The notes under the pieces were generated by a model. That model searched no databases, was not told where the DNA came from, and saw only the letters and a program-made list of their open reading frames with translations. The position numbers and the translations under genes are program-made. 64,000 nt of DNA, from positions 54,808,001-54,872,000 of the forward strand of contig OX597832.1 in assembly GCA_951406725.2 (NCBI GenBank). Direction: 5' to 3'. Source of the stretch: Octopus vulgaris (taxonomy: Eukaryota). Shown here piece after piece: positions 9,076 to 47,400 of the stretch (positions within the stretch are counted from its first letter, which is position 1; every line of letters starts with the position of its first letter).

Positions 9076-10337
<1,262 letters not shown>

Positions 10338-23152: not shown

Positions 23153-23536
23153 TTTTTTTTTCTTTTTGCATTTTTTAAATATTTATTTATATATTTTTTT
23201 ATTTATATATTTGTTTATTTATTTATTTATTTATTTATTTATATATTTGTTTATTTATTTATTTATTTATTTATTTTCATCCCTTCAACTGTATTCAATT
23301 CATTCGAAATCTTTTCGATTAATGTAATTAGCTTTCTGGGTATACTTTCATTGTTTCTATCATTTTATCTTTTACTCGTTTCAGTCATTGGATTGCGGCC
23401 ATGCTGGGGCACCGCCCTGAACGGTTTAAGTCGAACAACTCAACCCTCGAACTAATTTTATTTTAAAGCACTAATTCTGTCGGTCGCTCTTGCCGAACCG
23501 CTAACTTACAGAGACGTAAACAAATCAACACTGGCT

Positions 23537-23631
<95 letters not shown>

Positions 23632-23635
<4 letters not shown>

Positions 23636-23778
23636 GTAATGCAATACGAGAGTATTGCTTTCCAGTAAAGAATAGCCCGTGAGGGAAAATTATACATAGA
23701 AATAAATATATGGCCCAACGAAGTACCGCACGGGCTATTCTTTACTGGAAAGCAATACTCTCGTATTGCATTACTAAT
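23632..23778. repeat. Perfect 50-bp inverted repeat with 47-bp spacer
   Basis: 23632-23681 is the exact reverse complement of 23729-23778. Confidence 0.97.
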
Positions 23779-23880
23779 GTTATTGAAACCTCTTCACCGT
23801 TCTCGTTCTGTTAGCGTTTCGGCGTTTCAGTCGAGTGTATTGGCATTAATGTGGTAACATCTGAAATGTTGTCGTGGTAT

Positions 23881-23960
23881 ATGTTTGGCTGATGAAGATA
23901 GATCAAGTATATGAGTGCAGGCATATCTTGAAAAATCTGAAACCGGCTCCGGTCCCACAT
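23881..23960 (+). ncRNA. Type I hammerhead ribozyme motif, apparently intact
   Basis: Stem I ATGT(TT)GG/CCACAT. Core CTGATGA at 23889-23895. Stem II AGAT/ATCT, extended by CAAG/CTTG and ATATG/CATAT. GAAA at 23939-23942. Stem III CCG-GCTC-CGG. GTC cleavage triplet, with predicted cut after 23954. Confidence 0.82.
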
Positions 23961-24144
23961 TATCCCTTTCTAGGTATTTCATCTTTCAGATGTTCTCCCT
24001 GGAGGTAAGACAATTTTTTTCAAGTTTGTTGCACTCACGCATTTTTGCTAGTACATACGCGGTGAAGCTATACATTAGCGTCGTATTATTACGTTCGCTA
24101 TTTCCAGTAAATATCGGTACTTCGTTGTGCCATATATTTACTTC

Positions 24145-24201
<57 letters not shown>

Positions 24202-24358
24202 GCACACACACACATATATATACGACGGTACTCTTTCAGTTTCCTCTACAAATCCACTCACAAGGTTTTGGTCGACCCCAAGCTGTAGTAAAAGACACTT
24301 ATCCAAGGTGTCACACATTGTGACTGAACTCGGAACCACGTGGTTGGGAAGCGAGCTT

Positions 24359-24594
24359 CTTATTTCTTTATTACCCACAAGGGGCTAAACATAGAGGGGA
24401 CAAACAAGGACAGACAAACGGATTAAGTCGATTGCATCGATCCTATTGCGTAACTGGTACTTAATTTATCGACCCCGAAAGGATGAAAGGCAAAGTCGAC
24501 CTCGGCGGAATTTGAACTCAGAACGTAACGGCACACGAAATACCGCTAAGCATTTCGCCCAACATGCTAACGTTTCTGCCAGCTTGCCGCCTTT
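24359..24594 (-). mobile_element. SINE B, full length
   Basis: Reverse complement of the family B consensus; inverted partner of 25260-25492. Confidence 0.92.
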
Positions 24595-24840
24595 ATCTCA
24601 CTGAAACACCTGGGTCCGATTAAAAATATTACGAGCTAAAGGGAACTAGCTCAAGTGGGCTGATTGCATAAATTTAGATAAATCAGGTAGATGGTGATGT
24701 TCTGAATGATATCCACAAAATATTCTACATATCAATCACCTTGCCATCTAACAAAGCATGGGTACTTATGATATTCAGCCGAATCCCTAATTTCTCAAAA
24801 TTATCTCTCTTTTTCTTTCTGGGCCACCTACAATCGCTGC

Positions 24841-41673: not shown

Positions 41674-42915
41674 GGATGCTAAATCTTGTCTCAAAGCATG
41701 AAAACAAAAAAACCATCACACTCAGTAACAAAACAGGCAAAGGAATATCTAAGTGAATTCCAAATACAACAAATTTCAGAATGAGACGTACGGGAAACAA
41801 GCACAGAAAAAGTTAAGGGTGTGAAACTCCGTGCTAAAACTGCTGCCTTAAATATTCTTACTGATAAATGGCAAGAAAAACCTCTCAATGGCATATATCC
41901 AAAGAGAGCTAATAGTGCCAATGTTGACAAAGACTTAAAATCAGAAACAGAAAGGTTTATCATAGCAGCCCAAGATCAATGCCTACCTACAAGAAACTAC
42001 CAGGCCAACATATTAAAGAATGGCAGTAGCTCAACATGTCGTGTATGTCAACAACAAAATGAAACCGTTCATCATGTTGTTTCCATGTGTTGTCTTTTTG
42101 TGCTTACAGAGTACCTCAACAGGCATGATAGAGCAGCACAATATATTCACTGGGTAATTCACAAAAACCTGTACCTGACCCATGATAAAAACTGATCTTG
42201 AAATAGAAATCAGCAAAATGTGGAACTTGAAGACTAAAACATTACCTGCTGTTATAGGTGCCTTGGGAATGATGGTAAAAGGAGCTGATTGCTACCTAGC
42301 TCAGATACCAGGAAACCCCAAAATGGCAGAAATTCAAAAGATAGTACACATCGGAATAGGCAATGATCACATTTCACTCCTCTGAAACTTCACCATACAC
42401 ACTGATAGAAAGATAGATGCAAATAGGCCAGACATTATATTGAAAGACTTCAGACAAAAATCATGCCTCTTCATTGATTTGACTGTTCCAATCGATTTAC
42501 ACGTATCTGTCGAGACCTACCAAACACTGAGCAAGTATAAAGATCTTGAAATAGAAATTAGCAAAATGTGGAACCTGAAAACTAATACAATACCTGCTGT
42601 CATAGGTGCCTTGGGAATGATAGCAAAAGGAGCTGATTGCTACCTAGCTCAGATACCAGGAAATCCCAAAATTCAAAAGATAGTACACATCGGAACTTCC
42701 CATATCCGACGTAGAATACTGTCTATGTAATCTCAAATTTTAAAACAAACTCATTATTTTCTTATGTTTTCTTAAACATTCTCTAGAATAATACTACGTA
42801 CAAAACCAAATATATGACACTTCTAACTTGTCTCTTGAGGTTTCTGGGTGAGACTTGGAGTTAACTTGTACAAATACAAAGCAAATCAAACATATGATGA
42901 TGATAATAACAACAA
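41674..42915 (+). pseudogene. 5'-truncated R4/Dong-clade LINE (CCHC zinc knuckle plus REL endonuclease)
   Basis: KWQEKPLNG..ETERFIIAAQDQ..TRNY..CRVC..ETVHHVVSMC..YLNRHD..IHW; TDRKIDANRPDIIL..CLFID..KYKDLEIEISKMW..PAVIGALG. Contains stops and an internal duplication; the 5' flank is (AAT)n. Confidence 0.92.
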
Positions 42916-46414: not shown

Positions 46415-46727
46415 CAAATATATGCATATATACATACATCTATGTACATACCTACATATATACATATATAAACATGCATATATAGGTACAGGACATCGAA
46501 AAAAACGTAGACAAAATGAGAAACGAAAACATGAGAACAAAAACATAAAAAACGAACTTTTTTTCGAACAACGAAAAAAACAAACAGAGAAACGAGACAT
46601 GCAACATAAAGAATATTCCCCTTCATCAGTTGTCCCTGTTTCATCTACTCCGCGTTCGAAGGTACACATACATGTGGGTGGTTGTGTGCATACGTATATA
46701 TTTTTATATGTATGCATGTGTGTGTGT

Positions 46728-47400
46728 GAGACAGGTGTATGAACAACAAACAGGTATATTAGTTTGACGTTCGGAAAAGTGAGAAAGTCTTTTACGTTTC
46801 GAGCCTACGCTCTTCAACAGAAAGGAATAAGATGAAATAAGCAGAGAGAGAATAAAAAAAAACTTGTAGATTTAGCGATCAAGCATGGCGACTGGTTGGG
46901 AAAAAGAAAAGGTTTGACAACAGAGGTAGAAAGAATGAGAGATGGTGAAGAGAGAAGGTGTATTGGAGTGAAGAGAGGAAGTAGATGTCAGATGAAGAGG
47001 GGAAGTAGATGTCAGATGAAGGGAGGAGGGTAGTTGAGCCCATGTGTCGCAAAGGAGCGAAGAGAGATTAATTCATGTTCATGGCGAAGGCGGGAGTCCG
47101 GATGGCCCCTGTTCAAAAACAATCCGAACACAGACAGGTATTGTAGTGAATGACCGGTAGAACGGAAATGGTGCGAGACCGAAGTGTCATTGCCAAGACT
47201 GATGTCTCGGAGGTGCTCCGCGAACCGATCGGCCAAGCGGCGTCCGGTTTGACCGAAGTACAGAGAAGGGCAGAAAGAGCAGGAGATGCAGTAAGGGAAG
47301 AAACTGTGGTCCAGGAGGTCACGCAGGTTGTAGGCTCACTTAAAGGGGGGAAGAGGTAGACTGGAGAAGATGTGCGAGGTGGAGGGGTCGGACTAGAGTT
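46728..47400 (-). pseudogene. Penelope-like retroelement 3' end: GIY-YIG endonuclease relic plus pLTR
   Basis: The minus strand at 47012-47295 reads YCISCSFCPSLYFGQTGRRLADRFAEHLRDI..VSHHF..GHS..LSVFGL..RLRHEHELI..HGLN. A hammerhead-like motif lies downstream at 46789-46824. Confidence 0.9.

Follow-up and report, generated by a model that had tools for sequence, protein, structure and literature searches.

A 433-nucleotide retrozyme-like unit with a type I hammerhead motif and Penelope-like insertion hallmarks in Octopus vulgaris

A small non-coding insert carrying a type I hammerhead motif was analyzed within a 64-kb window of the Octopus vulgaris genome, the window being the whole stretch of DNA under analysis (64,000 nt). 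In our view, the insert probably represents a single copy of a dispersed 433-nt element that is not autonomous, that descends from an endonuclease-bearing Penelope-like element (PLE) and owes its movement to one, and that functions like an animal non-LTR retrozyme. A first-pass annotation of this DNA had proposed a non-autonomous ribozyme-bearing retroelement family, a proposal that is upheld by a family that is multicopy, related to PLEs and retrozymes and preferentially conserved in its ribozyme core. The suggestion that the family may be undescribed also stands so far: we found no description of it in the openly accessible literature on hammerheads, retrozymes or PLEs and cephalopods. The main text of a 2026 repeat annotation of Octopus vulgaris contains neither "hammerhead" nor "ribozyme," although its library, or Repbase/Dfam, may hold the sequence unlabelled (PMC13282606), and the supplement of PMC7229834 may list cephalopod families. 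The family is apparently an undescribed one of a known kind, a retrozyme-like non-autonomous PLE derivative, and none of it amounts to a new kind of system.

Anatomy of the insert and the closed unit

The insert had been described as about 515 bp long, with no credible open reading frame (ORF) and with (TA)n on both sides. The latter two features hold, but the insert is not one simple piece. An inverted, 5'-truncated piece on the minus strand (23630-23728) is set head to head with a forward copy on the plus strand (23730-24152), which comprises 423 of the 433 nt of the unit. The left flank is a microsatellite target of (CA)n followed by (TA)n (23540-23629, with (TA)n at 23604-23629), and the right flank is a (TA)n target (24149-24198). 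Both copy ends enter the (TA)n through TA letters shared with the target, and the exact end of the forward copy may lie anywhere in 24148-24152. A target duplication is unreadable within (TA)n, and the (TA)n target itself is seen at one locus.

Two long inverted pairs run through the insert, 23627-23684 with 23726-23783 and 23691-23728 with 24115-24152. Read on the minus strand, the inverted piece gives first the last 38 nt of the unit (36 of 38 alike to 24115-24152), next a 10-nt bridge (23690-23681), and then 49 nt identical to 23730-23778. It thus reads the end of the unit followed by its start, so the template was evidently either a 433-nt circle or units of that length in tandem. The bridge and the 49-nt part make up a "tail" of 59-64 nt present at one 3' end only, the inverted copy stopping that much further round the unit than the forward copy.

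Three hallmarks of PLE insertion are therefore present at this copy, namely, the inverted 5'-truncated piece placed head to head, the one-ended tail, and the (TA)n target, and on these grounds we regard the insertion as probably PLE made. Insertions of PLEs have been described with an inverted 5'-truncated copy, a 30-40-bp tail at one end and, in several clades, a bias to (TA)n (PMC8557442; PMC3846280); the tail here is longer than those published. In the Poseidon element of the anole, which has AT-rich targets, the tail equals the distance between two internal starts of reverse transcription (RT) (PMC11167929).

Once closed, the unit is 433 nt long with 39% GC, and it is non-coding apart from its one hammerhead. 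The single hammerhead of the locus makes it at most a monomer derivative. The longest ORF on the closed unit is 85 amino acids, a length reached by 40 of 500 shuffles, and none of six candidates proved homologous to the 54 amino acids of it that the window encodes, a weak test; with ORF length at chance level and no homologue, a coding unit was rejected. The ORF with RT and GIY-YIG that defines an autonomous PLE is absent from the insert. ARAGORN and Rfam revealed no tRNA-like head in the insert, a search that decayed heads could escape, and a tRNA-derived SINE was discarded on that basis. BLAST of the insert against the 64-kb window returned only itself and its internal repeats.

Splice-like signals occur in the unit at 23980-24051: a pyrimidine tract and AG precede an ATG at 23990, GTAAG at 24006 resembles a donor, and an AG close to 24050 resembles an acceptor. 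They could be the remnant of the intron and ORF start in the pLTR of a parent PLE. An X7 contig (the sequencing runs are introduced below) joins 23817>23990 in a manner that might be taken for splicing; with 25 letters on the short side and ends TT..AG, it was judged too weak.

Hammerhead core, stems and predicted cleavage

The type I hammerhead motif is real. It occupies 23881-23963 on the plus strand, with C3-A9 (CUGAUGA) at 23889-23895, G12-A15.1 (GAAA) at 23939-23942, U16.1 at 23953, and C17 at 23954. The complete core and three pairable helices recognized in the first-pass annotation are confirmed, as all core positions could be located, helix I is open, and the topology is type I. Its expected cut after 23954 likewise agrees with our placement of C17, from which cleavage is predicted at 23954/23955.

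Stem II (23896-23938) is long and interrupted, as had been noted, with 14 bp in three parts. A 4-bp helix (23896-99/23935-38) separates the core from a 3x3 loop of purines; two 5-bp helices with a bulge between them follow, and an 8-nt loop closes the stem. Stem III (23942-23953) has 4 bp, counting A15.1-U16.1, and a 4-nt loop. The earlier view that it is closed by its own tetraloop is accurate to that extent, but the same letters are also an imperfect palindrome (5 bp, 2 mismatches, and 5 bp), and stem III may form either as a hairpin in a monomer or as a 5+5-bp duplex in a dimer. Stem I is built of 3 bp, a 2-nt bulge, and 3 bp, and its six pairs are followed by U1.7 (23961), which is unpaired in the predicted active fold. 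An unpaired U1.7 and the last A of loop 2 make up the hammerhead loop contact described in PMC11875169. A possible counterpart in the octopus motif, which would speak for monomer action, is A23934, placed at the expected end of loop 2 but inside an internal loop. According to the same source, U7 is not essential and extension of stem II can inhibit a hammerhead.

A descriptor calling for contiguous stems of at least 3, 4, and 3 bp found one match in the real window, compared with a match in 1 of 200 block-shuffled windows; another descriptor hit, at 9259, has stems II and III of 2 bp each and was discarded. The Rfam hammerhead models, whose use the first-pass annotation had advised, gave no score. 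No hammerhead family reached its gathering score over the 64 kb, and none appeared at E<=10 in 601 or 111 bases. Rfam likewise passed over a minimal hammerhead candidate at 46.8 kb, so its models may have low sensitivity for hammerheads of this sort, and those with a long stem II may be undercounted. Matches to microRNA families in the insert came from the inverted repeat, fell far below gathering scores, and were set aside.

Folding models, which omit tertiary contacts, give stem III -3.3 kcal/mol as a hairpin and -16.2 as a two-copy duplex. In the local model, the active monomer fold exceeds the best fold by 1.2 kcal/mol; in context the gap is 4.7-6.8 kcal/mol, because 23887-91 can pair with 23944-48, letters present only in the long form of stem III. 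A one-site dimer compared to two monomers comes to -5.0 in the local model and +1.6 in wider context, with linked copies favoring other folds by 3.7-9.7 kcal/mol. In our judgement, cleavage in some form is very likely, while the prospect of cleavage as a monomer falls slightly short of even. If the motif lay in a host intron, as the first-pass annotation suggested, it might cut the pre-mRNA; we identified no host gene here.

Dispersed copies, predicted fold and constraint

Part of the stretch studied here is contained in 20 of 24 listed sequencing runs (10 studies and five organism labels). Copies were analyzed in four runs of four studies, X1, X7, X14, and X19, where the best DNA run may be the window's own sample and the other three are from other studies. 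X14 and X19 were guessed to be RNA; being assembled contigs of guessed type, they are uninformative on expression, RNA ends, and circles. Matching records numbered 359 of 23,566,041 in X1, 240 of 14,162,910 in X7, 117 of 6,579,193 in X14, and 5 of 767,095 in X19, with identities from 99+% down to less than 90%. The family is multicopy, being represented by 5 to 359 contigs per run across the four runs. Beyond these runs, an exact 22-nt pattern had no match in metagenome contigs, and a gapped pattern had none in viral contigs; two matches of the gapped pattern in metagenome contigs (L001 and L002) were without the helices and were dismissed as chance.

Contig detail rests on 21 of 88 loose ends and 29 of 731 pieces, and among the pieces listed none is longer than 239 nt, none spans the stretch, and none shows an array with two hammerheads. 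A head-to-tail joint in X1, 24144>23729 with 17 letters between, gives 416 + 17 = 433 nt, so that an independent contig agrees with the window's own inverted piece; a second X1 joint, 24150>23730, has 12 letters between. An X14 joint, 23651>23825, links opposite strands with 68 letters on the shorter side and a depth of 164. We read it as a single contig that leads from the unit end to the tail (23651 corresponds to 23759) and on into interior sequence belonging to a second subfamily. The joints 23705>23885 and 23670>23985, weak at depths of 18 and 7, appear to be inversions at other points in other copies.

Summed depth, which is no measure of copy number, increases in the 3' direction in all three deep runs, the gradient expected from 5' truncation. 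The excess over the 3' third (24044-24133) and the tail placement (23630-23683) relative to 23738-23971 can also be read differently, with the sequence being mainly the pLTR of an abundant autonomous PLE, the 433-nt unit an occasional internally deleted by-product, and selection on the parent keeping hammerhead and rod. PLE pLTRs carry hammerheads (PMC4209133), and the acceptor-like AG and subsequent ATG at 23988-23992 resemble the intron and ORF start of Penelope and Poseidon pLTRs (PMC8557442; PMC11167929). Contigs pass one or other end of the stretch in every run (16 in X1, 12 in X7, 6 in X14, and 1 in X19), and those leaving its left end could run on into an ORF. However, deep contigs run from tail to interior in three runs (X1 record 1, depth 214; X7 record 23, depth 435; and X14 record 9, depth 144), where depth holds up across 23774-23791 and two subfamilies seem to be involved. 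Of the aligned depth, a share of 0 in X1, 0.03 in X7, 0.01 in X14, and 0.24 in X19 (5 contigs) continues into sequence unlike the stretch, a weak measure with contigs this short. Moreover, the frame from 23990 carries two common 1-nt insertions and is without a homologue, in a weak test. The pLTR reading seems unlikely to us, and we prefer that of a dispersed 433-nt element.

A diverged subfamily, known from loose ends at 23949 and 24020 in X19 and X7, has another apical stem II helix and a minimal stem III. It keeps the 3' core and the proximal stem II helices (in the 3' 30 letters of the X19 loose end), with 119 nt upstream that are unaligned at 85%. At 23949, GAAA directly precedes the loose ends of X7 and X19, which implies that these relatives are without 23943-23948 and have a minimal 6-nt palindrome incapable of forming a hairpin. 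Six gaps also occur at some point in the stem III region in a single contig of X14 and in one of X7. No such deletion reaches the 8% listing threshold, which makes the long form the prevailing one in terms of depth. What separates the two forms is a short direct duplication, and they offer a ready natural comparison of monomer and dimer cleavage. The first-pass annotation had treated the self-closed stem III as distinctive; this does not hold, as axolotl has one retrozyme family with a short helix III and another with a tetraloop-capped helix III (PMC7229834). Among nine predicted Xenopus retrozymes, eight did not cleave (10.64898/2026.07.22.740005).

Folded as a 433-nt circle, the unit comes to -122.3 kcal/mol, where shuffles give -90.5 +/- 6.0 (z -5.3; none of 100 as stable). 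Unjoined, 23780-24110 has a z of -5.5 on the plus (ribozyme) strand and -2.5 on the minus strand, where ten control stretches folded on both strands gave 20 values between -2.4 and +2.4. The predicted structure is a long rod with the hammerhead at its tip, its 5' arm at 23792-23873 and its 3' arm at 24009-24067 on the plus strand, and 11 of its 66 pairs are G-U. An 11-bp helix between 23741-23751 and 24101-24111 (plus strand; pairing probability 0.65) would, in tandem or circular RNA, span the unit junction and enclose the first 3' end; neither of its strands has a substitution among those listed. A 7-bp tail hairpin (23752-23769, plus strand; probability 0.96) is predicted just 5' of the second 3' end (23778-23783), and its one variant sits in the loop.

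Variation among copies is consistent with this fold. Of 36 listed substitutions, 16 fall at unpaired sites, 10 keep their pair, 5 are rescued if the listed partner change is linked, and 5 break a pair (23840, 23863, 23868, 23909 in distal stem II, and 24047), so that pairing is kept or regained in 15 of 20 paired-site variants. The five breaks compare with 13.7 expected under random placement of the same changes (P = 0.0002). Preferential conservation of the core, which the first-pass annotation had named among its tests, is likewise seen: a 37-nt core zone contains none of the 36 listed substitutions (P = 0.028) and none of six listed indels, which the pairing count excludes. The two P values are on the generous side, given that the predicted helices derive from this copy and that the variants are not independent, being linked within subfamilies. 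These results indicate that the plus strand of the family folds as a strand-specific, conserved rod tipped by an intact hammerhead.

The clean core zone bears on whether the motif still cuts. In a PLE-derived mini-element with a hammerhead that no longer cuts, the motif would be kept as a recognition structure for the PLE protein, or the family would be too young for its loss. The energies of the active monomer fold in context and of the one-site dimer are compatible with such a state, and the Poseidon hammerhead of the anole works only with protein and is not required for insertion in vitro, which proceeds in hammerhead mutants (PMC11167929). Nevertheless, the folding models leave out tertiary contacts, the core zone is free of listed substitutions and indels, and the diverged subfamily retains the 3' core and proximal stem II, leaving a dead hammerhead highly improbable in our view.

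The strand specificity of the fold and its richness in G-U pairs also speak against a chance hammerhead-like arrangement in a palindromic DNA element, MITE- or Helitron-like, to which the lack of an Rfam score, the long inverted repeats, and the TA target might otherwise point. Shuffled windows rarely yield the motif, the inverted arms duplicate the unit junction and are not terminal repeats, and, by the weak joints above, other copies appear inverted at other points. We consider a chance origin largely refuted and retain an element of PLE descent.

Relation to Penelope-like elements and retrozymes

Non-LTR retrozymes of animals consist of short units in tandem that carry a type I hammerhead, and they give rise to self-paired circular RNAs in animals that include mussel, where units are ~350-390 bp (Cervera and de la Pena 2020, PMC7229834). 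A preprint derives retrozymes from PLE pLTRs and includes solo monomers among them (Li, Clavereau and Pollet 2026, 10.64898/2026.07.22.740005). The octopus unit falls within the definition that we applied (~150-1000 nt, non-coding, low GC, and a type I hammerhead), and it shares with these retrozymes the single hammerhead, a head-to-tail junction, dispersed monomers, a highly self-paired predicted circle, and a proposed PLE mobilization. It differs in its 433-nt length and in a 14-bp interrupted stem II in place of ~4 bp, and the PLE inversion and tail in (TA)n found at the octopus copy are not among the features reported for retrozymes in the texts consulted. As a family known here from a single-hammerhead copy and head-to-tail junctions, the element appears retrozyme-like, its formal membership being incomplete.

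Comparison with PLEs is equally close. PLE hammerheads, including the minimal forms (min-HHRs), have a palindromic helix III and act as dimers, with a larger helix II (PMC4209133). In the Hydra clade, stem III has 3-4 bp around a 1-3-nt center (PMC8557442 Files S1/S2), and the target is (TA)n in 26 of 27 families listed (PMC8557442). With the pLTR hammerheads of this clade and min-HHRs (PMC8557442; PMC4209133), the octopus motif shares the type I form, a place on the sense strand near the 3' end, and an imperfect palindrome as stem III, and with the PLEs themselves the (TA)n target, inverted 5' copy, and tail. In contrast to Hydra-clade PLEs, the unit is without an ORF, its stem III is one pair longer and its stem II much longer, its tail reaches ~60 nt, and the distance from cut site to 3' end is ~200 nt, compared to ~40 nt in Hydra-1_Obim. 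Poseidon of Anolis also has an AT-rich target, and it provides a mechanism that was tested there, with RT starting internally at two sites whose spacing equals the tail. It differs in being autonomous, with an ORF that starts inside stem II, and its RT starts lie in an AC-rich stem-loop, for which we claim no match here (PMC11167929).

A parent PLE was sought in the window and among published ends. The insert has no BLAST match to a PLE fragment near 47 kb in the window, and by eye it has no likeness to the published consensus ends of octopus Naiad and Hydra elements in the supplementary files consulted. On inspection by eye, Hydra-1_Obim was rejected as parent on its unlike 3' UTR (PMC8557442 supplement), and Naiad_Ovul and Naiad_Obim were rejected on ends of another arrangement. 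The Naiad "HHR_half_core," with core halves 35-50 nt apart as here, was also set aside, since two 16-nt motifs gave 0 matches in the supplement text, where line breaks may hide some. The first 30 nt of Hydra-1_Obim are loosely alike to the tail. In the half core of Naiad_Obim and Naiad_Ovul, GAAA lies upstream of CUGAUGA with hairpins between (PMC8557442 supplement), a layout that might fit a hammerhead of type II or III.

Taken as a moving element, the unit probably spreads as follows. Plus-strand RNA would come from a circle or from a source locus with at least two units, and the hammerhead would cut it after 23954 to unit length, more easily as a dimer of neighboring units and possibly as a monomer; the unit-length RNA may then be ligated to a circle. 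A PLE protein acting in trans would bind the structured junction region and nick (TA)n, and reverse transcription would begin internally at two sites ~60 nt apart, 24148-24152 and the next unit's 23778-23783. Joining of the two cDNAs head to head would leave a forward copy and a short inverted copy with its tail. The present copy, with its single ribozyme, is probably a dead end.

A bolder version, possible though doubtful, would place an active retrozyme between two ribozyme states. In that version, a 6-nt duplication would have allowed a palindromic PLE hammerhead, previously able to cut only as a dimer, to cut alone, with the purine loop replacing loop 2. This form would now be dominant and give rise to an abundant, rod-shaped circular RNA of 433 nt, and the PLE protein would recognize the 11-bp helix that exists only at the junction, with RT from the two sites ~60 nt apart. 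If true, the octopus family would furnish direct genomic evidence of retrozyme circles or multimers being copied by PLE enzymes in an invertebrate, along with a portable cis-signal of PLEs. In print, the case for the movement of animal retrozymes by PLEs comes from vertebrates, where the two co-occur, have hammerheads in common, and are linked by pLTR phylogeny, and the preprint that sets this out notes limited life-cycle evidence and no test outside vertebrates (10.64898/2026.07.22.740005). A retrozyme-sized unit with the inversion-and-tail footprint of PLEs is a mechanistic clue in this respect, and it points to a helix across the junction and to two RT start sites that can be put to the test.

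Other elements are present in the window. The 3' fragment of an autonomous-type PLE lies between (TA)n tracts on the minus strand (47335-46500), which counts in favor of the PLE reading of the insert. Its frame at 47015-47335 is GIY-YIG-like, with GIY-YIG look-alikes at 0.94-0.95 and the GIY-YIG family on 42-63% of the members of its atlas look-alikes; Pfam had no match for this frame. The fragment contains the minimal hammerhead candidate mentioned above (core at 46820, with the variant CUGUUGA, a 4-bp stem II, and a stem III that is palindromic); at 46629 there is another core-like CUGAUGA. On the plus strand, 41785-42730 holds broken C-terminal frames of a non-LTR retrotransposon, with a weak zf-RVT match below the cut-off (E 0.0016); the frames may resemble a restriction-like endonuclease. 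Dispersed repeats, presumably SINE-like, flank the microsatellites on either side of the insert (23330-23540 and 24200-24600), and similar text recurs in many frames across the window.
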